The position numbers and the translations under genes were made by a program. Under the pieces are notes generated by a model. That model saw only the letters and a list, made by a program, of their open reading frames with translations. It did not search any database and was not told where the DNA came from. A stretch of DNA of 37,713 nucleotides from a virus (Duplodnaviria; Heunggongvirae; Uroviricota; Caudoviricetes), in the IMG/VR virus record IMGVR_UViG_2802429240_000007. One strand, written 5' to 3'. Positions 1 through 37,477 of the stretch are shown here, in pieces; within the stretch, counting starts at the first letter, position 1; each line of letters opens with the position of its first letter.

Positions 1-987
1 ATGTCTTCTGTTTCTACATCGGGGTCTGGCGCGCCTAAGTCGTCATTCAGCCTCGGCCGTATCTGGGATCAGTACGGTATGCTGGTGGTGTTTGCGGTGC
101 TGTTTATCGCCTGTGCCATTTTTGTACCGAACTTTGCCACCTTCATTAATATGAAAGGTCTCGGGCTGGCAATCTCCATGTCGGGAATGGTGGCTTGCGG
201 CATGTTGTTCTGCCTCGCTTCGGGGGACTTTGACCTTTCCGTCGCTTCGGTAATTGCCTGCGCAGGTGTCACGACGGCGGTGGTTATCAATCTGACCGAA
301 AGCCTGTGGATTGGCGTGGCGGCAGGCTTGCTGCTGGGCGTCCTCTGTGGTCTGGTGAATGGTTTTGTTATCGCCAAACTAAAAATCAACGCCTTGATTA
401 CGACGCTGGCGACGATGCAGATTGTTCGTGGTCTGGCGTACATCATTTCTGATGGTAAAGCGGTCGGTATCGAAGATGAAAGTTTCTTTGCTCTTGGTTA
501 TGCCAACTGGTTCGGCCTGCCTGCGCCAATCTGGCTTACGGTGGCTTGTCTGATTGTCTTCGGTTTGCTGCTGAACAAAACCACCTTTGGGCGCAACACG
601 CTGGCGATTGGTGGTAATGAAGAGGCGGCGCGTCTGGCTGGTGTACCCGTTGTCCGCACCAAAATCATTATCTTTGTTCTCTCTGGTCTGGTATCGGCAA
701 TTGCCGGGATTGTTCTGGCTTCACGTATGACCAGCGGTCAGCCGATGACTTCGATAGGCTATGAGTTGATTGTTATCTCCGCCTGCGTTTTAGGCGGCGT
801 TTCTCTGAAAGGTGGCATCGGAAAAATCTCATATGTAGTGGCGGGTATCTTAATTTTAGGCACTGTAGAAAACGCCATGAACCTGCTCAATATTTCTCCG
901 TTTGCGCAGTACGTTGTCCGTGGCTTAATCCTGCTGGCGGCGGTGATCTTCGACCGTTATAAGCAAAAAGCGAAACGCACTGTCTGA
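1..987 (+). CDS. araH: L-arabinose ABC transporter permease (host gene)
   Basis: 328-aa polytopic membrane protein; translation recognised from memory as E. coli AraH; ATG start at window position 1, stop at 987. Confidence 0.9.
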   Translation: MSSVSTSGSGAPKSSFSLGRIWDQYGMLVVFAVLFIACAIFVPNFATFINMKGLGLAISMSGMVACGMLFCLASGDFDLSVASVIACAGVTTAVVINLTESLWIGVAAGLLLGVLCGLVNGFVIAKLKINALITTLATMQIVRGLAYIISDGKAVGIEDESFFALGYANWFGLPAPIWLTVACLIVFGLLLNKTTFGRNTLAIGGNEEAARLAGVPVVRTKIIIFVLSGLVSAIAGIVLASRMTSGQPMTSIGYELIVISACVLGGVSLKGGIGKISYVVAGILILGTVENAMNLLNISPFAQYVVRGLILLAAVIFDRYKQKAKRTV

Positions 988-1026
988 TGTTTTTTTCAGC
1001 ATAAATTTAGTTCGACTTTCCTCCAC

Positions 1027-1060
1027 AGCCAACCGCCACAAAGGTTGGCTGTTCTTTTTT
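1027..1060 (+). terminator. Rho-independent terminator downstream of araH
   Basis: Stem AGCCAACC (1027-1034), loop GCCACAAA, stem GGTTGGCT (1043-1050), followed by GTTCTTTTTT. Confidence 0.6.
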
Positions 1061-1149
1061 GCAAATGTGTAACTTCGCGTTTTTTTCTGGACTGATTGAC
1101 GCGCAATTCTGGATGGTTCAGGTGCGCCCAAAAAGTCCAGAATTGACCG

Positions 1150-1728
1150 CTAATTACTGCTGGTCGCCATCGCTCGGATTGAGCGTAAATCATCCAGGTT
1201 GCTCAACCTCTCTTTCATCTCCCGCTGACGTTGATAAATCTCGTCGTTGCGATCGACCTGCGCCTGCGCCATTGCTGCTGCCAGTTCTTCCAGTTCCGGC
1301 ATCGACAGTTTCACCTGTTGATTATCGGCGTCACCCCACGCCATAACGTCCCGCGCCGTGTCAGATTTCGCAGCCATTACCACAGGATAAAGACGGGCCA
1401 TTGAGTCGGGGCCAGCATTCCAGGTACGACCGTTCCATTCGAACGTGAACGGCAGTGCTTCCTGTTCTGTTCGCCACGCCTCGATTTCCCGCTTTTTGGC
1501 ATCTTTTGCCGCTGCGATAAGTTCAGGCGTGACTGTAAACGGGGCGATTTCACCCCATTTGCCGCTCTGTAACTCTTCCCAGATGCGCTGGCCTGTCGGC
1601 GCAGTATCATCCTGCATGGCGGTATACGGGACGAATTCCGTTTCACCTTCAAATAGCACCTCGCAATCAACCGCGCCATTTTCGAGATAATGCGCGTTTC
1701 TGATGCCTTTTACCGCTCTGATTTTCAT
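1150..1728 (-). CDS. Tail fibre assembly protein (Tfa-like chaperone)
   Basis: 192 aa immediately downstream of the large fibre gene; Tfa-like architecture; last phage gene before the host junction. Confidence 0.7.
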   Translation of the reverse strand: MKIRAVKGIRNAHYLENGAVDCEVLFEGETEFVPYTAMQDDTAPTGQRIWEELQSGKWGEIAPFTVTPELIAAAKDAKKREIEAWRTEQEALPFTFEWNGRTWNAGPDSMARLYPVVMAAKSDTARDVMAWGDADNQQVKLSMPELEELAAAMAQAQVDRNDEIYQRQREMKERLSNLDDLRSIRAMATSSN

Positions 1729-1742
1729 GTTTTATTTCCTCG

Positions 1743-4700
1743 TTACTCGATGCGCACAAACAGGCAGATACGACCGCTTGTTCCGTAAGAGTCCCTGACC
1801 CCGGATAACGCCATATAACGCCCCGGAAAAGTGTACCCTGTAGCTCCTGCACTCGGTGTGGAACCGTAGGAGCCAGCCCCCGCAGAAGATATTGTGCACG
1901 AAAGATTAACTCCGCCCAGTTGTGACCCTGGCACCACATCACCCAGGCCAATTTTGATTTCTTTATCCCCGGAAGTTGTTCCGCGATAAACAGCAAGCAC
2001 CGGAACACCAACTGCCGGGTATTTGAAATATGAGCCTGAGCCTGCCGTTCGGGACAGCAGGAACGCCAGCGAATCGCCGTCGTAAATGATGGGGCTTACT
2101 GTTGCATTCCAGTTGTTTCCACTCCAGCGGTAAGTCAGGCGATGAATGCTGTGCTCACCTTCGTAATACTGGTTAAAACACAGCAGCATTTTGAATTTAC
2201 GCGTTGTGTCCGATTCATCGTTATCAAAGGGCGACCACATCACATCAATGATGCCGTTAAATTTTGTGGTGCCTGCCAGTAGTGTGGAAGAGTCCGCAAT
2301 ACTGACCGCATAACGCCCCGGGGTGGCCTCTTTCAGCCATTCAGCAAAATCGGCCTGTCCGTCAAACGCCAGAGCGTCGGTGCTGGCAAATGCCTGACCG
2401 AATCCGTACATGCCGGACAGTGCCAGCCTGCCCGGTGTGCGGTCGCGGATATCGCTCTGGGGCTCCATCGTCGCAGCCGTTTTCAGACCAAGATATTCCA
2501 GCACCTCATTTTTAGAATTCTGACCAATTAACACCCGACCGACCGCAGTCAGATTTGCCAGCGCCATGACGTTTTTATCACTGAAATAAGGCAACTTATT
2601 ACCGGCAGTAACCAGTCCTGATAATGACGTCAGTATTTCATTAAGCGGCTGTTTACCTGCCAGGGCGTTAGTGACCGTTGTTGCAAAGTTCGGGTCATTA
2701 CCCAGCGCCGCTGCCAGCTCGTTCAGTGTGTCCAGTGTTTCCGGGGACGAGTCAACCAGCGCGGCGAGCAGTTTGCGGACAAAAGCCGCATTGGCTATCT
2801 CAGTGCCTGCTGCGTCATCCGGCGGGGTTGGTGCTGTCGGAGTTCCGGTCAGTGCCGGACTTTTCAGTGGTGCGCGGGCTTCAATCAGTGCCCTGAGTGA
2901 AGCCTCATCAACCTTCAGGTTTTCCCAGCCAACCAGATAACCACCACCTGATGCCACCGCGCAACGGTTATAATAAATATGACCATTAACACCATAATAA
3001 ATAATTATCTTATAGGCATACTCATCATTCGGGCTGGTTTTAGGTTGTGGCCAGATAATTTCAATAACACCGTTTGTCTGTATGCCAGGTACCACCACAT
3101 TTGTGTCCGCAAATACGGTATAACGACCGGGTTTTGCTGTTTTTACCCACCTGAGAAAATCAGTCCCTGATTTAAATTCAGTTCTGTCGCTACTGGAAAA
3201 TATTTTCCCGAAACCGAACATGCCGGGAATCGCCAGACGACCTTCGGTGCGGTCGTAAATATTCTCCTGCGCATCCTTCTGTGCTGCATTGCCAAGTTGT
3301 GGCGTCAGATTCGTCCAGGTGACCGGGGCGGAGATATTATCGCCACGAACGGTCATAAGAATCCGTCCGTCTTTTCCAAAAAACAGAACCAGCTTTGTTG
3401 CTGTCTGGCTGGTTTTGTCGCCCCAGTTGTTATCCAGCCAGATAATTTCTGTTATTCCGGTTGTTTCTTCCGTTTGTGTGGAAAAGGTGTAATACCGTCC
3501 CGGGTGCAGGTTGTGCGCAGTTCTGGCTACAGTCGCCATATCGCTGGCAATGATTGAACGCGCTCCGGCGTCCGTCATTCCGTAACCAAATGCACCAGGC
3601 AGCGCAACGCGGCCTTCCGAGCTGTCGTAAAGGTCTGTCTGAATGTCCCTTACCGCTGCGCTTTTCAGCTCAAGCTCATTGCGCATGGTTTCCACTGTGG
3701 CCTGTGCCAGCAGTGACCGGGCTTTTTCTGACAGCGGAGACAGTGAAGCATTCCCGTCCTGATTAAAGCACAGAAGCTTATCCGCCCGTTCTTCCAGATT
3801 ACTGATTGCGGTTAACACGTCACTGAGTGGTTGTTTACCCGCCAGCGCGTTCATGATTGTTGTCGCAAACTCCGGGTCATTGCCCAGCGCCGCTGCCAGC
3901 TCGTTCAGCGTGTCAAGGGCTTCCGGCGACGAATCAACCAGTGCGGCAAGCAATTTGCGGACAAATGCCGCGTTCGCGGTTTCCAGACCGACTGCATCGT
4001 CCGGTGGGGTTGGTGTGGTTGGCGTGCCGGTGAACGCCGGGCTGTCCAGTGGCGCTTTTGTTTTCGTCTCGTCCATGACGGTTTTGACGGCTTTTGGCGT
4101 GGCTGCCAGTTCTTCGCTGTCGTTGTCTGTATCACTACAGAGTTGCACCAGGCCTTTTTCTGTCGTGGAAGCATTGCCTCCCTTCAGGTCATCAACTATC
4201 CGTTGCGCGTCGTCCCTGTGCTGTTTCGCATTCTGCTCGCTTTTTGCTGCCGCTTCGGCGCTGGCTTTTGCCTCGCCGGTCAGCGTTGCGGCTTCACCGA
4301 GTTTATCAACAGCCTTATCGACAATTTTGTCTGCGTCCTTAACGGCCTGCTCTGCGCGGGCCGCATCCTGCGAAGCTGATGATGCCAGTAACGCCACCTG
4401 CTTTTTGTCTTCGGCAACGGCCTCTGCATTCTGCTGTACGTTATTCGCCAGCGTCTGACAGTCATCCTTAATCTTCTGCGCATCAGTAACGTGCTGTTCT
4501 GCCAGCCGCTCGCTTTCCGCTGCCGCTTCCGCGCTCTGCTGCGCCTGCGCCACCATTTCCTCGAAGCGTTTCACCACGTCGGGTTTGAGGTCGCCTTCAT
4601 CGGGGGCGGTCAGAAAATCATTCAGTGTGCCGGGCTTTGAATCGTCGTAAATCGAAATGTCACCCACACAGCACTTGGGGCCGTTCTTTTGCTTGATGTG

Positions 4701-4880
4701 TACGGTGTATTTGCCTTTTTGCGCTTCAAAGGCATACTGTCCCGCCGCATCGGTTTCAATAACCGCGAATGATTCAGTGACCACTTCACTGGTATTAACC
4801 AGTGCATCTAAATAAATTTTGCATTCCGCCATCGGAACGCCAGCGCCATTAATAAGCGCCCCTGAGATCAATACAGACAT
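1743..4880 (-). CDS. Side tail fibre protein, mosaic, 1045 aa
   Basis: N-terminus (ISGALINGAG...GDISIYDDSKPGTLNDFL) resembles the lambdoid Stf N-terminal domain; Ala/Glu/Lys-rich coiled region; two copies of a ~75-aa collar segment (SPAFTGTPTTPTPPDD... and SPALTGTPTAPTPPDD...); three paralogous C-terminal-type modules; GAGG RBS before the ATG at 4880. Confidence 0.8.
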   Translation of the reverse strand: MSVLISGALINGAGVPMAECKIYLDALVNTSEVVTESFAVIETDAAGQYAFEAQKGKYTVHIKQKNGPKCCVGDISIYDDSKPGTLNDFLTAPDEGDLKPDVVKRFEEMVAQAQQSAEAAAESERLAEQHVTDAQKIKDDCQTLANNVQQNAEAVAEDKKQVALLASSASQDAARAEQAVKDADKIVDKAVDKLGEAATLTGEAKASAEAAAKSEQNAKQHRDDAQRIVDDLKGGNASTTEKGLVQLCSDTDNDSEELAATPKAVKTVMDETKTKAPLDSPAFTGTPTTPTPPDDAVGLETANAAFVRKLLAALVDSSPEALDTLNELAAALGNDPEFATTIMNALAGKQPLSDVLTAISNLEERADKLLCFNQDGNASLSPLSEKARSLLAQATVETMRNELELKSAAVRDIQTDLYDSSEGRVALPGAFGYGMTDAGARSIIASDMATVARTAHNLHPGRYYTFSTQTEETTGITEIIWLDNNWGDKTSQTATKLVLFFGKDGRILMTVRGDNISAPVTWTNLTPQLGNAAQKDAQENIYDRTEGRLAIPGMFGFGKIFSSSDRTEFKSGTDFLRWVKTAKPGRYTVFADTNVVVPGIQTNGVIEIIWPQPKTSPNDEYAYKIIIYYGVNGHIYYNRCAVASGGGYLVGWENLKVDEASLRALIEARAPLKSPALTGTPTAPTPPDDAAGTEIANAAFVRKLLAALVDSSPETLDTLNELAAALGNDPNFATTVTNALAGKQPLNEILTSLSGLVTAGNKLPYFSDKNVMALANLTAVGRVLIGQNSKNEVLEYLGLKTAATMEPQSDIRDRTPGRLALSGMYGFGQAFASTDALAFDGQADFAEWLKEATPGRYAVSIADSSTLLAGTTKFNGIIDVMWSPFDNDESDTTRKFKMLLCFNQYYEGEHSIHRLTYRWSGNNWNATVSPIIYDGDSLAFLLSRTAGSGSYFKYPAVGVPVLAVYRGTTSGDKEIKIGLGDVVPGSQLGGVNLSCTISSAGAGSYGSTPSAGATGYTFPGRYMALSGVRDSYGTSGRICLFVRIE

Positions 4881-4897
4881 AAAACCTCTGAACTGAA

Positions 4898-4921
4898 AAC
4901 GGTCGCCAGAAAGCGACCGTT
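4898..4921 (-). other. Stem-loop between tfa stop and side tail fibre RBS; possible attenuator/terminator
   Basis: AACGGTCGC / GCGACCGTT 9-bp stem with 6-nt loop; on the minus strand it is followed by TTTTCAGTT. Confidence 0.3.
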
Positions 4922-4927
4922 ATTGTT

Positions 4928-5362
4928 TTACACGTCAGGTTTTTCCGGCCACTGAATTAAATCAAAGGAAGATTTATCACTGACCTGACTTAAATCCAGC
5001 GCCTTTACCTCCCTGATATACATCATCCACTGTGTCAGGCGTCCCTTGTCTGCATCGCTGATGGTGCCCAGCTCCAGCTCGATTTTCCAGTCGGAGGTGA
5101 TTTCCCTTGCTTCAGCCAGCAGGTGCTGGCGTTGCGTTTCCGCTTTCTGCTGCCAGTTAATTACGGGTTCTTTTAATACCGGATATCCGTTTTCGCCGGA
5201 TACAATAATAAAACCGTCAGTCTGACCCTGTAACAGTCTCTGATATTCTTCATCCGTGATTTTCTGTAAATCACCAGGCCACGTTCCCGCATTTTCATAA
5301 TCATTCTGAAGGTCAGAATGATAAAAACCGTTTGTTGATGGGCTGAAATAAATAGTCATCAT
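4928..5362 (-). CDS. Tail fibre assembly protein (Mu U-like chaperone)
   Basis: 144 aa; start overlaps the stop of the upstream fibre gene (ATGA at 5362); position matches Mu U. Confidence 0.65.
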   Translation of the reverse strand: MMTIYFSPSTNGFYHSDLQNDYENAGTWPGDLQKITDEEYQRLLQGQTDGFIIVSGENGYPVLKEPVINWQQKAETQRQHLLAEAREITSDWKIELELGTISDADKGRLTQWMMYIREVKALDLSQVSDKSSFDLIQWPEKPDV

Positions 5363-6243
5363 TAATACCCTATCGCTGTCCAGTACATAACGCCGTTATT
5401 CTCGCTGTTGAATGTCGCACCTGCTGCTGATAATGATTTCAGGGAAATAGAGTAATCAGCACGGGTATATGCGTTGGTAATAGTGATGCTGGTACATGCT
5501 GACGGAAATGATATCGGAAACGTCAGCCCGGCACCGGCATTGCCGAGATACCCCCACTGAATAATCACCCCGGTGGACGTGTCCTTAAACCAGCCATTAC
5601 CGGCTTTTGACGCCGTGTTTTTTTGCTGGTAACGGTTGTCACCTTCAGTTTGTGACATTCCCGCAGAAATCGTGATATCGCCGGAGCCGTCAAAGAGCAC
5701 ATTGTTAATCCTGCGGGCCGTCTGAAGGCGGGTTGCCGTTCCGGCGTTGCCGCTGATGCTGTTGATGGTGATATCCGAAGTCAGGGCCATGCCGTTGACC
5801 TTACGCGCTTTCGGCACACCGCTGATGTTATCCAGAAACAATTGTTTATTCGGGATATCTGCGCCGTTACGGTCTTTTGCCAGTCTGGCATTTGCGTTAT
5901 CCATCGCAATTTTTACCGCTTTGGGCGTGGCTGCTTCTGTTTCTGATTCACTGTTAACAGCACTGTTAAGCTGCACTACGCCTTTTTGCGTCAGCGATGC
6001 ATCCGGGACTTTCTGGCCAATAAACGAGGTCAGCGCCTCAACCAGCTGGTTTTGTTTTTTCGGATCCGGGGTTACGCCAGCCTCTTTAAGGACGTTAATC
6101 ACCTCCTGCTGCAAATCGCGCGTTGCTTCCTGATGATTATTCATATATTCAGCGGTAACAATGGTTCCCTCTATCCCCTGAGTCGGGTCACCATCATGAA
6201 ATAACTTGTCCGGTGTATTAACCGGAGTCATTAAATTCTGCAT
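5362..6243 (-). CDS. Tail fibre protein (short, Mu S-position)
   Basis: 293 aa; contains the ATPKAVK fibre motif also present in the large fibre; Gly/Ser/Thr-rich C-terminus; coupled start/stop with both neighbours. Confidence 0.6.
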   Translation of the reverse strand: MQNLMTPVNTPDKLFHDGDPTQGIEGTIVTAEYMNNHQEATRDLQQEVINVLKEAGVTPDPKKQNQLVEALTSFIGQKVPDASLTQKGVVQLNSAVNSESETEAATPKAVKIAMDNANARLAKDRNGADIPNKQLFLDNISGVPKARKVNGMALTSDITINSISGNAGTATRLQTARRINNVLFDGSGDITISAGMSQTEGDNRYQQKNTASKAGNGWFKDTSTGVIIQWGYLGNAGAGLTFPISFPSACTSITITNAYTRADYSISLKSLSAAGATFNSENNGVMYWTAIGY

Positions 6244-6815
6244 TATTCCTCCACCTCATATGTGAAATAACAGTCTGTAAAAGCCGGTTTAAGGTCTTTA
6301 AATGTGTTTTCTAAAATGGATTCACCAAAGGCCGTCAGCGGCTCGCCGGTTGCCGATGCCCCCGTTCTGAAACGGTAGACCGGCGTTTTTGTTCCGATAA
6401 CATTGACCTGCCATGCCCAGCGGATTTCCGGTATCAGCAGACGGTCGCCGCAGCGGTTTATCCCCACCCGGAATGGTCGCGGCTCCGTAATGGTGATGGT
6501 ATAGCCCAGGCTGGCGGCAAGGCTCTTAAAGTAAGGGATTGACAGCCCGCCTGTGGCTGCCATTTTTACCAGGATATTCTGCCGCCGCTCCTGTTGTGTG
6601 GCACCTTCACGGGGGACAACACCGTACACGCGCTCCCAGTCGGACAGCGTCATCGATGCCTGCAACGGGGTGATTTGTGCCAGAACGCTCGCCGCTGATG
6701 CCTTCACGGCCTCCATGACGTCAGCCTCGGCTGCCAGCTCTGCAGAAATATAATTCCCGTTCGGGTCATAACTGACAGGCGGCAGCATGGCGCGAAATAA
6801 ATCGACCATATTCAT
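6243..6815 (-). CDS. Tail/baseplate protein (Mu gp48-like, DUF2313/YmfQ-like)
   Basis: 190 aa; position and sequence character consistent with Mu gp48; family assigned from memory. Confidence 0.6.
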   Translation of the reverse strand: MNMVDLFRAMLPPVSYDPNGNYISAELAAEADVMEAVKASAASVLAQITPLQASMTLSDWERVYGVVPREGATQQERRQNILVKMAATGGLSIPYFKSLAASLGYTITITEPRPFRVGINRCGDRLLIPEIRWAWQVNVIGTKTPVYRFRTGASATGEPLTAFGESILENTFKDLKPAFTDCYFTYEVEE

Positions 6816-6818
6816 GAA

Positions 6819-7898
6819 TCACCCCTCACGCGGAAAAGACTGAATATCAATATTTCCCGGGCGCAGCCATTCCCACGTTGACGCGTTAATAATGGCTTTT
6901 ACGTTGTCTGCAGGCGTAACGATTCGCCGGTCACTCACGCCGGAAATGAGTGAAATCTGGGTTTCCAGTTGTGAAATAATTAATTCTTGCCCCGGCTCCA
7001 GTCGGTTCATAAAATCCGTGATAACGTCAGTTATCTGCGGTTTTATCTGCTCAACGGTCAGGCCGCTGGTTTTTACCCGGACAACGAAATCAACGGCTTT
7101 TTTCGTCGGGGCCAGTACCATCGTGTCCTTCGCTGTAACCGGGCGGACTTCCTCAATATGTGCCAGCACGGCATTAATCAGTTCCTGAGAGGGAAGATCA
7201 TTAGCTGACGTAATGGCCACATCAACCGTCCCCAGTCCACGACGCAACGGCTCCACATACGCAGACGTAACGCCATCCACTTCCAGCGCCCAGCGTTTGT
7301 AATCATATTTGTTACCGCCAGCGGGCGGCCTGCGCAGAATATCCAGATAACGCGCCAGCAGGTCGGCGTCGCTTTCCCTGTCCGTTCCGCCGGTCAGGGA
7401 TTTAATCGTCACCGTGCTGTTGATGCCTTCCGGCGGGCTGACCAGCGTTGCCGTCTGCGTCGTGGATGCATTCGTCTGTGCACCCGTGGCGGTGCTTTTT
7501 ACCGTCACCTCCGCGCTGCCTTCATCACCGATGGTGCAGTCTGCTGTGGTGGCCACGCTGACACCTTCACCACGAATTTCCGCACCGGCTGGCAGCGTCT
7601 TACCGGGTGTGCCGGTAATCACTACCGGACCGGATGAGGCTGTTGCTTTTTTACGAAAAACATTGCGCGTGCGACAGTGTAGCTCCAGATATTCAGGGTC
7701 TGCCGTGTCAGGAAACACCTGACGGAGTATCCACCCCTGATGCATATAAAGCCCGTCAGCCACGCCGGATACGGCATTTGCACGAATGCGGTAATCGCTG
7801 TCAGCGCCGGTGTCTATGGTTTCTCCCGGCAGGGCGTTAGCGATATCACGTAGCTGGCGTTCTGTGTTTTCAGCAACGCCCGGAACAGGAAACGGCAT
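6819..7898 (-). CDS. Baseplate J-like protein (Mu gp47-like)
   Basis: 359 aa; synteny between the gp46-like and gp48-like genes; baseplate J family character. Confidence 0.7.
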   Translation of the reverse strand: MPFPVPGVAENTERQLRDIANALPGETIDTGADSDYRIRANAVSGVADGLYMHQGWILRQVFPDTADPEYLELHCRTRNVFRKKATASSGPVVITGTPGKTLPAGAEIRGEGVSVATTADCTIGDEGSAEVTVKSTATGAQTNASTTQTATLVSPPEGINSTVTIKSLTGGTDRESDADLLARYLDILRRPPAGGNKYDYKRWALEVDGVTSAYVEPLRRGLGTVDVAITSANDLPSQELINAVLAHIEEVRPVTAKDTMVLAPTKKAVDFVVRVKTSGLTVEQIKPQITDVITDFMNRLEPGQELIISQLETQISLISGVSDRRIVTPADNVKAIINASTWEWLRPGNIDIQSFPREG

Positions 7899-8248
7899 TA
7901 CATAATCCTCACAGGGTGTTCAAACGTCTGCGGTGTGCCCGCGTTATCCGTGACGGTGATTAACAGCAACAGCCAGCCGCGCTGGCCCGCTTTCGTGTCA
8001 ACGGTAATGGATTTTGCCCGCCCGTCATCGAGCAGTGGCTGAAGTGCCTGGCTGGCATACTGCGCCGCCAGTCTGTGAACACGGGGAACGTCTTTTTCCC
8101 GCTTCAGCTCGTGCAGGCGTGACCCCAGCGACGCATCCGCCCAGTAACTGCCAAGCGGTGTCGCCAGTCGCAGATAAACCGCGTTATGGAGTGTGTAAAT
8201 CCGGCGGCGTTCGTAGTCGCCGGTTGCAGGTGAAATCGTCTGGTCCAT
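7898..8248 (-). CDS. Baseplate protein (Mu gp46-like, GPW/gp25-like)
   Basis: 116 aa; synteny; preceded by the conserved late motif at 8287-8301. Confidence 0.6.
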   Translation of the reverse strand: MDQTISPATGDYERRRIYTLHNAVYLRLATPLGSYWADASLGSRLHELKREKDVPRVHRLAAQYASQALQPLLDDGRAKSITVDTKAGQRGWLLLLITVTDNAGTPQTFEHPVRIM

Positions 8249-8286
8249 GCCGCCAGTCTGGCAGCATGGACAGGTCAGAATCAGGT

Positions 8287-8301
8287 GAGGGTGTTCAGCA
8301 C
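8287..8301 (-). promoter_or_regulatory. Conserved late-operon motif, copy 3 (plus-strand GAGGGTGTTCAGCAC)
   Basis: Matches the core shared with the copies at 20245-20259 and 28404-28418; sits between the gp45-like stop and gp46-like start. Confidence 0.4.
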
Positions 8302-8955
8302 TTAATTAACCGGCGTGTCAGACATGCCGTGTGGGGTTGGGTGTTTGTGTGTTCCGATTTTAACGCCATTAATGGTGACGTCAACGGAGGTAAGCACACC
8401 ACCTACATGGTTGATGTTGCCTTCAAAAGTGGCGGCGTATTCCTTGCCCCCACTGATGGCCATGCCACCGTTGCCGGTGATTTTACCTTCCACCGTCAGC
8501 TTATCGCTGGCCGTCAGTAACGGTGTCGTGAATGCGGCGTTCTCCTCTGCCTCAACCTCATAGCGTTTGCATTTCACCCGGTAAACGTCACATTCTGTTT
8601 CAATAATCCGCCCGCGCTTCAGTACGATTTTTGCGCCTTCGTCGGTATACAGGGCCACCTCGCCGGGTTTCAGTTCCGTCAGGCGATATGCGCCGTGCTC
8701 TGTGGCCACGACGACGGTATGGGAGGTATTGCCGTTCAGCGGAACGGCAATACCCATTGAGCCGGGCGGCGGGGATGTGGTGAGGCCGTAATGCTGAAAA
8801 TACTCCGCACCGTCCAGCTGTTCGCCTGCCAGCCCGTTCAACTGAAGCAACTGTACTTTGGTCGAACTGTCCACCGTACCGGTCACCACCCTGAATGCCT
8901 GGCGAACGGCGGACAGCGCCTGCTGTATGCGCTGATTAATCTTGTCCCACATCAT
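8302..8955 (-). CDS. Baseplate spike/assembly protein V-like (Mu gp45-like)
   Basis: 217 aa; synteny downstream of the gp44-like gene. Confidence 0.6.
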   Translation of the reverse strand: MMWDKINQRIQQALSAVRQAFRVVTGTVDSSTKVQLLQLNGLAGEQLDGAEYFQHYGLTTSPPPGSMGIAVPLNGNTSHTVVVATEHGAYRLTELKPGEVALYTDEGAKIVLKRGRIIETECDVYRVKCKRYEVEAEENAAFTTPLLTASDKLTVEGKITGNGGMAISGGKEYAATFEGNINHVGGVLTSVDVTINGVKIGTHKHPTPHGMSDTPVN

Positions 8956-25354: not shown

Positions 25355-26095
25355 TCACACCTGCGCTGCTTCTGCCTGCGCTTTTTCGAGACGTGCGCAG
25401 GCGATATCAAAATACTGGTTAGTCATTTCAATGCCGGTAAACCGTCCGCCACGGGCAAGTACAGGGATGGCGGTGGTGCCGCTTCCCATAAACGGATCGA
25501 GAACGTGCGCATCCGGTGCCAGCGGTTTAACCAGCTCGGCCATCAACTGAACCGGCTTTGCCGTCATGTGCAGTTTTTCGGACGGGACAACACGCTGCGT
25601 AATCACACCCGGGAACGGGCCACCGTGCGGGCATTTGTCGAGTTTTCCGTTGCTGCCCCAGACCACATACTCGGCCTGATGCCGGAAATAGCCGGTGTGT
25701 GGCGCACGGGAAGCAAGCGTTTTATCCCAGACAACCAGACCACGCCACAGCACACCACCGGCCTGAAATGCATCGGTAAGTGCCGGTAGTTGTCGCCAGT
25801 CACTGAACACCATGAAATAACCGCCGGGATTCAGCCTGTGCAATGCATGAGATATCCACATGGAACACCAGAACGCCCAGCTGCGCTGGTCGCGGTTATC
25901 GCCGGTGAACTCGGCATACTGGGTGTGACCGACATACTTGTCCGAAGGGGCCATGCTGCGGTCTGATTTGTGTGTGCCACCACTGCTGTAAGGCGGGTCG
26001 GTAATGACGGCATCAAAACGTTCAGATAACGCCGGCAGCACATCAAGAACATCACCGCAATACAACGTTGCGTTACCAATAATCTGTTTTTGCAT
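25355..26095 (-). CDS. DNA methyltransferase, beta-class amino-MTase, probably N6-adenine
   Basis: 246 aa; DPPY motif near the N-terminus (ITDPPYSSGG) and FxGxG AdoMet motif near the C-terminus (DPFMGSGTT), i.e. motif IV before motif I. Confidence 0.8.
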   Translation of the reverse strand: MQKQIIGNATLYCGDVLDVLPALSERFDAVITDPPYSSGGTHKSDRSMAPSDKYVGHTQYAEFTGDNRDQRSWAFWCSMWISHALHRLNPGGYFMVFSDWRQLPALTDAFQAGGVLWRGLVVWDKTLASRAPHTGYFRHQAEYVVWGSNGKLDKCPHGGPFPGVITQRVVPSEKLHMTAKPVQLMAELVKPLAPDAHVLDPFMGSGTTAIPVLARGGRFTGIEMTNQYFDIACARLEKAQAEAAQV

Positions 26096-30301: not shown

Positions 30302-30400
30302 ATTTTCACCCCGCGTTATCAGGAACGTCGATTTCAACCGTTACGGTGATAGTTTTCATCGAGTTGTTACTCCGTGATTCAGAAAATTCCATACCGAGCC

Positions 30401-30811
30401 TCAGTATGTAAAATAGACAGTTGCCACGCCGTTATAGTGATCAAACGATACGGCGTTTACTTCATAGCTGGCCGGGAGCTTCGAGCCGAGAACGTATCCG
30501 GGCCACGTTTTCCATGGAATTTCTCTGCTCTCACCATCGCCATATACCGTACATCCCAGTGAGCCTACAGCTTCAGAAGAACGCTTACCGCACGTTATGA
30601 ACCCCAGATTTTGCTTACTGTCCTTAACAGAAATCGGGAGAGCACTGGCTGATGCATTAGCAGCACGCTGTGCCTGTTGGTTTGCGATATTCGCAGAGTT
30701 CGCAGCAGCTGCGGCAGCAGTGGTCGCAGCAGTAGATGCCACAATAACTGCTGAAGCCTGCGCCTGTTGGGTAATGGTCAGCAATGCCGCCACAAAAATC
30801 ATTTTCTTCAC
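30401..30811 (-). CDS. Secreted protein with Ala-rich linker (136 aa)
   Basis: Signal peptide MKKMIFVAALLTITQQAQA; AGGAGG RBS 6 nt before the GTG at 30811; low-complexity Ala/Thr/Asn segment then a ~80-aa C-terminal domain with 2 Cys. Confidence 0.5.
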   Translation of the reverse strand: MKKMIFVAALLTITQQAQASAVIVASTAATTAAAAAANSANIANQQAQRAANASASALPISVKDSKQNLGFITCGKRSSEAVGSLGCTVYGDGESREIPWKTWPGYVLGSKLPASYEVNAVSFDHYNGVATVYFTY

Positions 30812-30823
30812 CTGGTACCTCCT

Positions 30824-31003
30824 TTACATACCGTGATTTTTCCAGCGGTTTTGTGCTGCACTTCTACGTCGCCCGGCACCGTAAAAATGCGTTGGTAACC
30901 ATCGTGCAAGGCCAGAAGGCGCATAACGAATAACAAGCCGATTTGAGATACGGATAAGCTGCCCGGGTTTTGCTATCAGCAGTCTTGCTTTACGGTTTTT
31001 CAT
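30824..31003 (-). CDS. Small basic protein B (59 aa), paralogue of A
   Basis: MKNRKARLLIAKPGQLIRISNRLVIRYAPSGLARWLPTHFYGAGRRRSAAQNRWKNHGM; ATG overlaps the stop of ORF A (ATGA); below the 60-aa cutoff of the ORF track. Confidence 0.35.
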   Translation of the reverse strand: MKNRKARLLIAKPGQLIRISNRLVIRYAPSGLARWLPTHFYGAGRRRSAAQNRWKNHGM

Positions 31004-31176
31004 CGTACTGCATACCCTTTCTTCCGCCTGTTCTGTGACGCGCTAGGCTTACGCTTTGCGGCAAAAGCCACCTGACCAAATGGATGGAGCACCGCTATCT
31101 TATGGTTGCTGATAACCAGCTCCACCACACGCACAGGTCGCTGTAAAAAAAGTCGTTTTGCTTTACGGTTTTTCAT
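31000..31176 (-). CDS. Small basic protein A (58 aa), paralogue of B
   Basis: MKNRKAKRLFLQRPVRVVELVISNHKIAVLHPFGQVAFAAKRKPSASQNRRKKGYAVR; AGGAGA RBS 8 nt upstream; first 22 nt identical to ORF B. Confidence 0.35.
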   Translation of the reverse strand: MKNRKAKRLFLQRPVRVVELVISNHKIAVLHPFGQVAFAAKRKPSASQNRRKKGYAVR

Positions 31177-31180
31177 CGTT

Positions 31181-31369
31181 TCATTCTCCTGTATTTACTA
31201 CTGACTCTGCACTGTCAGCCCTGCGGCGCTCCTGAAGTTCCAGCATTGCGGCCCGGAAATCCTGCCACCATTCCTCATCGGCAACGGGGGTGTTCCGCTC
31301 CAGCACCTTGTCCGCATCGGCAATCAGTCTGGTCAGGCTCTTATCGCTTATTCTGGTTTGCTGGTTCAC
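31181..31369 (-). CDS. Hypothetical small early protein
   Basis: 62-aa ORF, coupled to the upstream gene. Confidence 0.4.
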   Translation of the reverse strand: MNQQTRISDKSLTRLIADADKVLERNTPVADEEWWQDFRAAMLELQERRRADSAESVVNTGE

Positions 31370-34283: not shown

Positions 34284-34523
34284 TCATTGCCATACGACGG
34301 TGCAGCCGTCGATACAGGACGTTTTCACCACGCGGCGCAGGCCGCTGAATGTCTGGATGATTTCCGTTACCGGCCATACAGGACCACCCACGGGCGGGCA
34401 GGCATAAACCACAGGTAAACGGTGATGCTGTCCCGTTACACGACCGCCAGTGGTGTGGATGGCCACACGGGCACGGGAACGGACGGCGTTAATGGTCTGC
34501 TTGTCCATCGTCTTGTTCTCCAT
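34284..34523 (-). CDS. Hypothetical small early protein
   Basis: 79-aa ORF; start overlaps the B stop. Confidence 0.4.
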   Translation of the reverse strand: MENKTMDKQTINAVRSRARVAIHTTGGRVTGQHHRLPVVYACPPVGGPVWPVTEIIQTFSGLRRVVKTSCIDGCTVVWQ

Positions 34524-35416
34524 CAGTGAATTAACATTTCTGCGAATTTATCAATGGCCTGCACACTGACCGGTGCATCGCTGATATCACAAATCCGGTA
34601 CACACCGCGCGCCAGTTTGAAGAGGCGGCGGGCATTACCCAGCGAGCGTGCGTAAAGCGCCTCGCTGATTTCCGGTTCTGCTGCTTCCGGCATCAACCCG
34701 GTAGCTATCTGGTTAAAATCTTCCTGCGACAACGTATCGCCCAGGTTAAGCGCCAGCGCCACACGGCTGTATAACTGGGCGAACTCACCACGACGCCCCT
34801 TAAGGTTAATCAGAAGACGAGGCATACCCGCCAGGACAACCCCGATACCCGCTTTGTCATGCAGACGACGCAGAACCTCCAGTGCGCGATAGGGGAGCAG
34901 TTCAGCCTCGTCCACCATCAGCAGGCGACCGGAATCACGCAGTTCGCGCACACAGGCATCTATCAGTTCGTGAATGTTGCCGCGAACCTTTACCCCCAGC
35001 TGGCGGCACAACTCCTCAAGCAGTGTTCTGGCTGTATAGCCCGGGTCAGCCTCAATCAGGACCGCATCCCGGTTTCTGGCGGCGTATTCACGCAGAATCA
35101 TTGTTTTGCCAAGACCTGCCGCGCCATACAGTACGCAGATTTCACATTCCAGGTGAGCATAGGCCAACACCTCCAGTCCTTTGGCAGCCATACCGGTGGC
35201 AACAAATTTCGCTTTAATACGGCGGCTGTTTTCCTTTTCCCGCTCACGGGTCACAAAGGCAGAAATGCGTTCTTCAATATCAGCCATATCGCCCTGATAT
35301 TTACCCTGTAAATACTGGTTGATAACGGCGCTGCTACGACCAATAGCACGGGCGACGTGGGTTTGCGTATAGCCGCGACGGGCCATTACGTCATTTAATT
35401 GCGTAATTAAACTCAT
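34523..35416 (-). CDS. DNA transposition ATPase (Mu B-like)
   Basis: 297 aa; N-terminal HTH-like segment; Walker A GAAGLGKT; Walker B-like LLMVDEAE. Confidence 0.85.
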   Translation of the reverse strand: MSLITQLNDVMARRGYTQTHVARAIGRSSAVINQYLQGKYQGDMADIEERISAFVTREREKENSRRIKAKFVATGMAAKGLEVLAYAHLECEICVLYGAAGLGKTMILREYAARNRDAVLIEADPGYTARTLLEELCRQLGVKVRGNIHELIDACVRELRDSGRLLMVDEAELLPYRALEVLRRLHDKAGIGVVLAGMPRLLINLKGRRGEFAQLYSRVALALNLGDTLSQEDFNQIATGLMPEAAEPEISEALYARSLGNARRLFKLARGVYRICDISDAPVSVQAIDKFAEMLIH

Positions 35417-35434: not shown

Positions 35435-37477
35435 TTAACGGTTGTTTGTGCCGTTTTTCTTTAAATTGCGCTCGCGTTCAGATGCGAATAAATAAAGTTC
35501 TTCTTTTTCCTTTTTCTCCTGGCGTTCCAGTCCATATCCCAGATTAAACTCAGGCTTCTGCGTAATAGCCGGGGTAAGCTCGCGTTTAGCCTCTTCGATT
35601 TTCTGCGCGGCCCGTGCAATGCGGCCTCTGACGCGTTTCTCCAGTTTTTGCTCGATAACTGGTTTAGCGAAGGCATCAACCTTGTTACCGTTCCAGATGG
35701 CATCGCAGATATAAGAGCCATCAGCCCGCCGGACAATGACACTGTTTGCATCATGAATATCGTAACTGACCCTGACTTCATTCCCGTGCTCTGCGGCCAG
35801 CTCATACGAGTAATAAATATTGTTGAATAACTGAATTTCCCCGCGAAATGTTTTGCGCGTCACTTCCGGTCTGAACATTTCATGCAGTTCTTCCGGCGAC
35901 AGGAAATCAATTTCAACATTCTGCTCTTTTATCAGTTTCCGGCGATACGCTGCCGGGCTGTAATATTCGCCATCCTCTTTGCGGGGAAGGCTGCTGTGTG
36001 GCCGGTTGTTATAGCGTCTGACCTCCAGTTCTATGGCTGCCATCAGTTGCTCAAAGGTGGGGATTTCATCCCTCGCCTTAACCTGCCGTTTTGTCAGTTC
36101 TTTCCCTTTGTGGGTGGCCTTAATGGCTGACTGCATAATCCGTTGCTGCATCATTACGGTTTCCTTGTCTGCTCCCTTTGAGCAGTACGTCTGGAAACTC
36201 AGGGCCACATCCCGGGGAATTTCCTTGTTAAGCCTTTCAATCACCCCGCGCCCCTGCGGGTTACCTGGTATCCCCGTGTGATGTTCCACACCCAGCCGGG
36301 GGAGAATCCCGGTAATATCGGCATCAAGAACCCGGTTTTTTTCGCCGCCCCCGTTATCGGAGTAATAAATCAGCGGTATCCCGTGCTGTGCCATGCCGTA
36401 ACGCAACGCATCAGCAACGGCTATCACGTTCTCCGACAGGGACAGCGACCAGCCCACAACAAAGCGTTGCCCCGCATCCATAACCAGCGTCACTTCTGGC
36501 CGGAAAATATTGCCGGTCAGTGGGTTAAACGCGGTCATCTTCATACAGTGACCATCCCCGACCCATACCGCATTAACCGGTAGCGATGTCCAGTCGCGCC
36601 GCACAAAGGGATTGAGCGAACGCCAGGCTGAACCGGTGGAGCGGAAACGCTCCTTAACAATCACCGGGACGTTGCTTAACACCCGTCTTACTGCGTGAAC
36701 GGAAGGCAGTGCTGCCAGCATTCCCGCATCATTCGCGTGTTTTTCATGCCACCAGGCTGAAAACTCGCGATACGCATATTCAACGGTCGGGCGCTTCCAT
36801 GAGCGATAGAACATAAAGAAATCGCTCAACCACCAGACCTGCTCCCACGGAGTTCCCTTATGATGACCGGGAGCCAGTAACGCCAGTAACTGATTGGCAT
36901 CACCGCGCGCCATCAGCCAGGCGGAATACCATTCCTGTAAACTCCCTGTACTGACGCCAGTTCGCTTACCCTGCCGGGCATTGGCGGTATTACCTGCCAC
37001 AATAACGCGCTCTGGCAAAGCCTCCTGGCGGATACCATCAACGATGTGTTTTATCGCTGCCGTCCTGGACATTCCTGCGTATTCACGCAGTTTATGCACT
37101 TCGGTAGCCAGCAATATCCGCGCATCAGCGATGGCCTTTTGCTTGTCGGTCAGTGCCTGAACTTCGCGTAATGCCAGTTCCGGGCATTTGACCATCACTT
37201 CCAGTTCATCGCGAACGGTAACGTTTTTAACTGCCTTCTGCTCAACCACGGCAGGCAGTTGTGCATCTTCCAGAACCTGATGGGTCAGGCGCTTACGTAA
37301 AACCTTCTGCGCTTCAGCGGGCAGACAGTCGATGTGATACTCGAATGCTTTGGTGCCTTCACGCTTGCGCTTCCATTCCGGGTGCGTCTCTGTGATCCGA
37401 TTGAGCGTCCAGCGCACCCCCTGAACTGTACCGGGCAAACCAGGAAGACCGGCCAGCTCATTGGCTGAATAAAACAT
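35435..37477 (-). CDS. DDE transposase (Mu A-like)
   Basis: 680 aa; N-terminal DNA-binding region and central catalytic core of MuA-like size and layout; directly between ner and B. Confidence 0.9.
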   Translation of the reverse strand: MFYSANELAGLPGLPGTVQGVRWTLNRITETHPEWKRKREGTKAFEYHIDCLPAEAQKVLRKRLTHQVLEDAQLPAVVEQKAVKNVTVRDELEVMVKCPELALREVQALTDKQKAIADARILLATEVHKLREYAGMSRTAAIKHIVDGIRQEALPERVIVAGNTANARQGKRTGVSTGSLQEWYSAWLMARGDANQLLALLAPGHHKGTPWEQVWWLSDFFMFYRSWKRPTVEYAYREFSAWWHEKHANDAGMLAALPSVHAVRRVLSNVPVIVKERFRSTGSAWRSLNPFVRRDWTSLPVNAVWVGDGHCMKMTAFNPLTGNIFRPEVTLVMDAGQRFVVGWSLSLSENVIAVADALRYGMAQHGIPLIYYSDNGGGEKNRVLDADITGILPRLGVEHHTGIPGNPQGRGVIERLNKEIPRDVALSFQTYCSKGADKETVMMQQRIMQSAIKATHKGKELTKRQVKARDEIPTFEQLMAAIELEVRRYNNRPHSSLPRKEDGEYYSPAAYRRKLIKEQNVEIDFLSPEELHEMFRPEVTRKTFRGEIQLFNNIYYSYELAAEHGNEVRVSYDIHDANSVIVRRADGSYICDAIWNGNKVDAFAKPVIEQKLEKRVRGRIARAAQKIEEAKRELTPAITQKPEFNLGYGLERQEKKEKEELYLFASERERNLKKNGTNNR

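Follow-up and report, generated by a model that had tools for sequence, protein, structure and literature searches.

The 37,713-nucleotide stretch of DNA of the IMG/VR record IMGVR_UViG_2802429240_000007, analysed at its full length and called the window below, contains a Mu-like transposable prophage on the minus strand, which encodes MuA, MuB, Mor, gp36, gp37 and the tail sheath, and the right end of this prophage appears to encode two complete receptor-binding modules that are probably carried by the same virion. The sheath gene of the prophage is at 14705-16126, that of the tail terminator gp37 at 16342-16959 and that of the adaptor gp36 at 16992-17423. Downstream of the homologue of the Mu baseplate wedge protein gp48 there are four minus-strand open reading frames (ORFs), namely a short fibre (fibre 1), the putative chaperone 1, a side-fibre-type protein (fibre 2) and the putative chaperone 2, tightly packed on one strand, the same as that of the late operon. 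An earlier interpretation of the letters of the window (the sequence-only reading) had proposed these four ORFs and suggested that two fibre types may be carried at once instead of being switched by inversion, as in Mu. All four ORFs were found where it had placed them, on the minus strand and with strong family matches. The anatomical side of the suggestion holds, and carriage of both fibres is the best-supported reading, based on the unrelated anchors, the constraint on both of them and the conservation of the tandem, while the co-assembly on one virion, the geometry of the ring formed by fibre 2, its docking site and the division of labour between the fibres are what we infer from this anatomy. 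The most interesting aspect of the arrangement is the occurrence of a lambda-type collar anchor on contractile tails.

Fibre 1 belongs to the short baseplate fibres of the Mu S type, with a pyocin-like tip. Its N-terminal region is homologous to Mu gp49 (S), and it is encoded right after the gp48 homologue, the start of its gene overlapping the gp48 stop codon, and a gene of the Caudo_TAP family lies immediately downstream, which is the organization of the S/U module of Mu. Fibre 1 is 44.7% identical to residues 47-196 of Mu S, and its matches in the PDB are Mu S (5yvq, 4e-25) and the fibre tips of R-pyocins. The N-terminal 190 amino acids (aa) are 92-96% identical in the relatives, in which the tip is swapped. 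The length of fibre 1 is 267-308 aa in every member of this Mu-like family versus 504 aa in Mu, and such shortness across the family fits a division of labour between a short and a long fibre. Chaperone 1 matches the C-terminus of Mu U (tblastn, 5e-06), with a conserved C-terminal half and a variable N-terminal half. In the cryo-electron microscopy structure of Mu, the N-terminus of gp49 docks on the gp48 loop 133-155 (PMC11915804), and the gp48 homologue of the window, 97% identical to those of the E. coli relatives, would be the docking platform of fibre 1 by analogy.

Fibre 2 consists of the collar, a predicted helical stalk, a Phage_fiber_2 repeat, two shaft modules of 88 aa, three paralogous domains of about 120 aa, and the tip. 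The collar is related to the N-terminal domain of lambda Stf (StfN) in the structure of the Ur-lambda tail (PDB 9e7m; E 6e-17, 40% identity). An AlphaFold model of the collar, built on an alignment of 28 homologues (partial proteins from contig ends) and with a mean predicted local distance difference test score (pLDDT) of 74, comprises six predicted strands and a short helix, followed by a long helix from residue 100. Among the solved structures only two matched this model at E <= 0.001, namely StfN of 9e7m, with a template modelling (TM) score of 0.92 and a root-mean-square deviation of 1.9 A, and the neck collar spike of the Vibrio myophage XM1 (7kjk), with a Foldseek E-value of 5.4e-07, a TM score of 0.62-0.66 and 22% identity; for the latter, phmmer with the domain alone gave E 0.037. 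Within the shaft, the segments aa 273-360 and 667-754 are 80% identical by segment comparison, and the same comparison gave 31-45% identity for the paralogous domains at about aa 404-507, 529-635 and 797-904. Each of the latter begins with the motif D-x-x-x-G-R-[LV]-A-[LI]-x-G-x-[FY]-G-[FY]-G. The repeated domains could represent several lateral binding domains.

The gene following fibre 2, which begins 14 nucleotides (nt) past the fibre 2 stop codon, had been described in the sequence-only reading as that of a Tfa-like chaperone. This assignment has to be corrected, since its product is a DUF4376 protein, and the Caudo_TAP chaperone of the region is that following fibre 1. Chaperone 2 did not match Caudo_TAP at E <= 0.01, is dissimilar to chaperone 1 and has no relative in the PDB, and it is 75-82% identical to L57 of the phage phiP27, gp70 of the phage pPE4 and tail4 of the phage Rac-SA53. 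DUF4376 proteins were found to be needed for fibre function in the Alteromonas phage V22 (gp27) and in the Campylobacter element CJIE1, as the partner of the H fibre (PMC10579305, PMC7882524). Because of this experimental requirement, it is reasonable to label the product as a putative fibre chaperone of a non-Tfa family. The coordinates of these and other features of the window are collected in Table 1.

Table 1. Features of the right end of the Mu-like prophage, of the adjoining host DNA and of the transposition and baseplate regions (positions in the window).
Feature	Position	Strand	Family match or remark
Host ATP-binding cassette (ABC) permease gene	1-987		Adjoins the prophage, outside it
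Terminator hairpin of the host ABC permease gene	1025-1052		Just outside the prophage
Right end of the prophage (attR)	1068..1149	.	Mu-type terminal TG at its start
Chaperone 2, putative fibre chaperone (DUF4376)	1150..1728	-	192 aa; PF14301 1.5e-16 (above cut-off), phrog_1141 1e-88
Fibre 2, side-fibre-type protein	1743..4880	-	1045 aa; PF08400 phage_tail_N 1.6e-47 and Phage_fiber_2
Collar (anchor) of fibre 2, lambda Stf N-terminal type	4605..4880	-	aa 1-92; PF08400 1.6e-47, above cut-off
Stable hairpin of the 47-nt chaperone 1/fibre 2 spacer	4898..4921	-	10-bp stem
Chaperone 1, Caudo_TAP (Mu U / lambda Tfa family)	4928..5362	-	144 aa; PF02413 2.4e-22
Fibre 1, short Mu S-type baseplate fibre with pyocin-like tip	5362..6243	-	293 aa; Phage_fiber_2 2e-21, Gp53-like_C 2e-13
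Baseplate wedge protein, Mu gp48 homologue (YmfQ family)	6243..6815	-	Pfam Phage_Mu_Gp48 1.2e-30
Mu baseplate gp44-gp48 homologues	6243-10163		
MuB	34523-35416	-	
MuA	35435-37477	-	

The S and S' fibres of Mu have one constant N-terminus in common, and the Gin inversion alternates their tips; since both use one anchor, and hence one docking site, they must alternate. Fibre 1 and fibre 2 of the window have unrelated N-termini and their own start codons, and the only part common to both is a repeat of 44 aa, whereas the second fibre of Mu relies on the constant N-terminal part of S. With anchors of unrelated kinds, neither fibre has to contend with the other for a place of docking, and they can coexist. 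The phage T4 has both long and short fibres, and Ur-lambda has Stf besides the J protein. By the proposed mechanism, fibre 1, as the homologue of Mu gp49, would dock as six trimers on the wedge loop of gp48 and would be folded with the aid of the Mu U-type chaperone, while the immunoglobulin (Ig)-like N-terminal collar domains of fibre 2 would encircle an axial part of the tail or neck as a ring, which a linker would connect to the trimeric helical stalk, with the tip presumably folded by the DUF4376 chaperone. The possession of both fibres may then widen or speed up adsorption, similarly to the long and short fibres of T4 or to Stf plus J of Ur-lambda.

The right-end comparison among relatives, which the sequence-only reading had recommended, revealed the same four-gene block (fibre, Caudo_TAP, PF08400 fibre, DUF4376) at the genome end in both Mu-like and other phages. 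It stands after the wedge genes in the Shiga toxin (Stx) 2e phage phiP27 (L54-L57), in Rac-SA53 (tail1-4), in pPE4 (gp67-70) and in a Yersinia similis prophage, behind the baseplate genes of Mu-type prophages of Salmonella and of E. coli, in the latter at three insertion sites, and also in prophage remnants of Shigella and E. coli and, with nothing but the collar left of fibre 2, in a Cronobacter prophage; in total, the block is known from prophages of five enterobacterial genera. The junction region has matches of 90-95% identity in about 26 of the 5,426 complete genomes of E. coli, and the search of genome contigs with the collar domain yielded six loci. The tandem of fibres has been kept behind at least three contractile-tail lineages. 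The blocks of phiP27, Rac-SA53 and pPE4 share with that of the window the gene order, the strand and the place, and their counterparts of fibre 2 are 58-77% identical over the aligned stretches, with 71% identity over the full length for Rac-SA53 tail3. However, these phages integrate by an integrase and belong to other tail lineages, while the window holds a Mu-type transposable phage, and the phiP27-type blocks have another collar subtype (54-56% identity over aa 1-78) and a spacer of 23 nt without a hairpin. The entry named 'Actinobacillus phage vB_Apl-pPE4' (PP818812.1) is about 85% identical at the nucleotide level to the enterobacterial fibre region described here, and its stated host looks doubtful because the tail and the fibre block match those of the E. 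coli phage Rac-SA53. phiP27 and many annotated prophages of E. coli already contained the four-gene block without its having drawn comment, and as a genome feature it is a case of ordinary mosaicism. In searches of the literature on PF08400, on DUF4376 with tail fibres and on the fibres of phiP27, no paper turned up that addresses the function of the tandem block.

A number of observations weigh against the carriage of both fibres by one virion. The lambda collar sits on a bare tail tube, while the tube here is sheathed; the lambda docking site as such is absent, because the genes of this phage specify a tail sheath and a baseplate of the Mu type. Over aa 1-78, phiP27 and pPE4 have collars of 100% identity (L002, 10210-10443; L003, 3876-4109), whereas BLASTP detected no similarity between these phages in the sheath or wedge, and the neck and tube proteins of phiP27 had no tblastn match in pPE4; the latter has a sheath, hub and wedge according to PHROGs, with no Pfam match in its tail proteins. 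No partner of the collar emerged when it was sought by co-variation with the sheath, wedge, neck and tube proteins, so that identical collars are found on unrelated tails and do not co-vary with any obvious partner. Decayed copies occur as well, including a collar-only ORF of 149 aa that ends a Cronobacter prophage (L020, 8001-8450), a frameshifted fibre 2 in E. coli RM9088 (L007, 4740-7018) and a 608-aa fibre 2 in E. coli B1172 without a DUF4376 gene after it (L006, 5402-5488), and fibre 2 is thus dispensable, at least in prophages. Finally, a hairpin between the two modules, described below, could lower the expression of fibre 2.

The identical collars on unrelated tails and the decayed copies are what would be expected if fibre 2 and its chaperone were a passenger brought in by recombination, acquired through the near-identical sequence after the collar and assembled inefficiently or not at all on the Mu-like tail. 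Residues 79-120 are near-identical in all the relatives, so that this part is a likely recombination joint and may have served as the crossover point. Nevertheless, such an origin of fibre 2 without a function in the virion is unlikely, as the Mu-like family has a collar subtype of its own, 97% conserved within the E. coli relatives and with the above-mentioned distance to the phiP27 type, and as the fibre 2 gene is intact, tightly spaced and placed on the late-operon strand. The ratio of nonsynonymous to synonymous substitution rates (dN/dS), obtained from ungapped pairwise alignments with the E. coli relatives at a dS of 0.26-0.30, is 0.05-0.07 for the collar (aa 1-100), which likewise speaks against a passenger; it is 0.07-0.14 for the fibre 1 anchor, 0.04-0.09 for the wedge proteins gp47 and gp48, and 0.07-0.08 for the gp48 homologue taken separately. 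Both fibre anchors are therefore under strong purifying selection, and the constraint on the collar equals that on the wedge proteins.

The identity of the phiP27 and pPE4 collars fits three readings, namely an anchor indifferent to the tail, a docking within the fibre block itself, and a block carried unused in some phages. According to the first of them, which we put forward tentatively and regard as possible rather than probable, the Stf-type collar would be a plug-in anchor, in which a self-assembling Ig-like ring clamps the long fibre on the neck or on another axial ring without a co-evolved partner. It is equally tentative that the block of the collar fibre and DUF4376 would in this case move freely between unrelated myovirus tails, and that a Mu-like phage would gain neck- or collar-mounted long fibres besides its baseplate fibres. 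According to the second reading, fibre 2 would be mounted not on the tail body but on fibre 1 or on the chaperone that fibre 1 has retained, and the product would be a branched or an extended fibre. In every myovirus context examined, a Caudo_TAP gene comes immediately before the gene of the collar fibre, and the fibre block is the only part that phiP27 and pPE4 have in common, as a branched fibre would predict. However, both solved homologues of the collar bind axial rings of the tail or neck and not fibres, and against a constant collar chaperone 1 varies freely in its N-terminal half, as does fibre 1 at its tip, which makes the branched fibre a rather improbable construction. Returning to the anchoring of fibre 2 on the tail or neck, the lambda Stf collar on sheathed tails, identical in two phages with dissimilar tail proteins, poses the structural question of the place and the mode of its docking, and if the anchor is portable, it may be useful for the host-range engineering of phage-derived particles.

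The hairpin in the spacer stands directly after the stop codon of chaperone 1 and is followed by a short run of U (UUUU, then CAG) and the ribosome-binding site of fibre 2. Its folding energy is -19.3 kcal/mol against a mean of -10.8 for shuffled sequences (z = -3.5), and it is kept in three E. coli Mu-like relatives, in one of them with a G-U compatible change. It is possibly a weak terminator, an attenuator or an mRNA-stabilizing element. No promoter was called by the scan in the spacer between the modules. From its stability, its conservation in the Mu-like relatives and its position between the chaperone 1 stop codon and the U run, one might suppose that the fibres are alternative by expression, with the hairpin acting as a conditional terminator, so that some particles or conditions would give fibre 1 only. 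The chance of this is slight, since the U tract is short, the scan called no terminator on the coding strand, the relatives of the phiP27 type, including Rac-SA53, retain the tandem without the hairpin, and no regulator is evident.

The right boundary of the prophage was established at base 1068 by alignment of the right ends of three E. coli relatives at different chromosomal sites. In these three independent insertions of related prophages the sequence is common from TGTAACTTCGCGTTTTTTTC onward and divergent before it, and the common sequence opens at base 1068 with TGTAACTTCGCG, a Mu-type TG terminus; the megablast matches to the window begin at 1065-1068. Between the stop codon of the last phage gene and the prophage end there are only 82 bp, in agreement with the sequence-only reading that the prophage stops right after the fibre modules, and gin or mom cannot fit at the right end because of this length. 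A neighbouring lambdoid prophage remnant was considered as the source of fibre 2 and ruled out, as the Mu-type terminus lies downstream of fibre 2 and the independent insertions carry fibre 2 inside the element.

It had also been claimed that the region has no recombinase, invertible segment or mom, and the searches confirmed this for the window: tblastn with Mu Gin and Mu Mom against the entire 37.7 kb gave best E-values of 3.0 and 0.24, respectively, and the best inverted repeat in the window, 34 nt at 74% (5710/8740), does not bound the fibre modules. No oppositely oriented sets of tip plus chaperone on one constant N-terminal segment were found either, both sets being on the same strand. 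Similarly, a recombinase, an invertase and mom were found nowhere in STEC313, a complete E. coli relative with 86% identity in MuA and 98% in the sheath. To our knowledge, most Mu-like phages have no gin, G segment or mom, and their absence is consequently not evidence of a replacement of switching by dual carriage; in this respect the contrast with Mu was overdrawn, though correct as to the absence itself. A gin-type invertase with inverted fibre copies might be thought to lie outside the window, as about 1 kb of the prophage left end is beyond it and as in some distant relatives the tandem is followed by a Gin-like gene. Its probability is negligible, considering that the right end is within the window, that the left end of STEC313 contains only the repressor, Ner, MuA and MuB, and that bounding inverted repeats were not found in the window.

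Prophage remnants of Shigella flexneri (L009) and E. coli ECMA0423 (L010) have, at 9100-14900, the tandem followed by a gene for an ipaH-type E3 ligase effector (NEL domain) and then by the gene of a Gin-like invertase, which a stop codon interrupts and which is 77% identical to Mu Gin, with no inverted repeats left in these remnants. Tandem fibres therefore do not preclude an invertase, as these relatives possess the tandem together with a disrupted Gin-like gene.

Among the known systems, the Mu G segment is similar in that its S and U genes, likewise placed after gp48, are homologues of those of fibre 1 and chaperone 1, and different in having Gin, gix-type inverted repeats, an oppositely oriented second set and mom, none of which was found here. 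The Stf of Ur-lambda resembles fibre 2 by the homologous collar and by the linker and helical stalk following it, and lambda Stf is an accessory long fibre beside another receptor-binding protein. In Ur-lambda, the collar round the gpV/gpM junction is made up of twelve StfN domains, with four trimeric fibres attached to it (PMC12617516); however, the tail of Ur-lambda is non-contractile, with the collar gripping that junction and with a Tfa chaperone, while the tube here is sheathed and the chaperone gene is of DUF4376. In gp40 of XM1, an Ig-like domain at the N-terminus leads into a trimeric coiled coil, and fibre 2 may be built in a similar way; XM1 is likewise a phage with a contractile tail and a simple baseplate. 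At the XM1 neck, eighteen domains of the collar type are attached to the head-completion and tail-terminator proteins (PMC10457771), and for fibre 2 such a neck location is one possibility. gp40 differs from fibre 2 in its tailspike-like C-terminal domain, besides the low identity and the TM score of about 0.65. The Shigella phage Sf14 has two fibre types on a Mu-like baseplate, both of them seen on the virion (PMC11821841), from which it follows that a phage with a Mu-like baseplate can carry two fibre types at once. The tandem of two fibre genes after the Mu-like wedge genes is common to Sf14 and the window; in Sf14, unlike here, the fibres have a similar N-terminal baseplate-binding motif and no chaperones, while the fibres of the window have unrelated anchors and a chaperone gene each. 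If both fibres are indeed present on the virion, the prophage would exemplify a second Mu-like route to broader host recognition, with constitutive dual fibres as opposed to the Gin-driven alternation.

The insertion point of the prophage lies 16 bp beyond the hairpin that forms the intrinsic terminator of the host ABC permease gene. The relatives are inserted at unrelated loci, such as yjfJ/yjfK, ydiS and chbG, which fits the expectation for transposition. In the late region, between the DUF1804 gene and the gene of the large terminase, there is an N6/N4 DNA methyltransferase gene (25355-26095, minus strand; PF01555, 7.6e-24), and STEC313 has a methyltransferase gene at the same place; this enzyme may stand in for the missing Mom in shielding the phage DNA from restriction. 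Two stretches of the early region, about 30975-31191 and 30399-30824, show 92-97% identity to the Stx phages TL-2011b/c and P1-like phages and 82% to the phage Av-05, the TL-2011c match spanning the gene of a hypothetical protein of 58 aa, and they represent the ordinary mosaicism of early genes.

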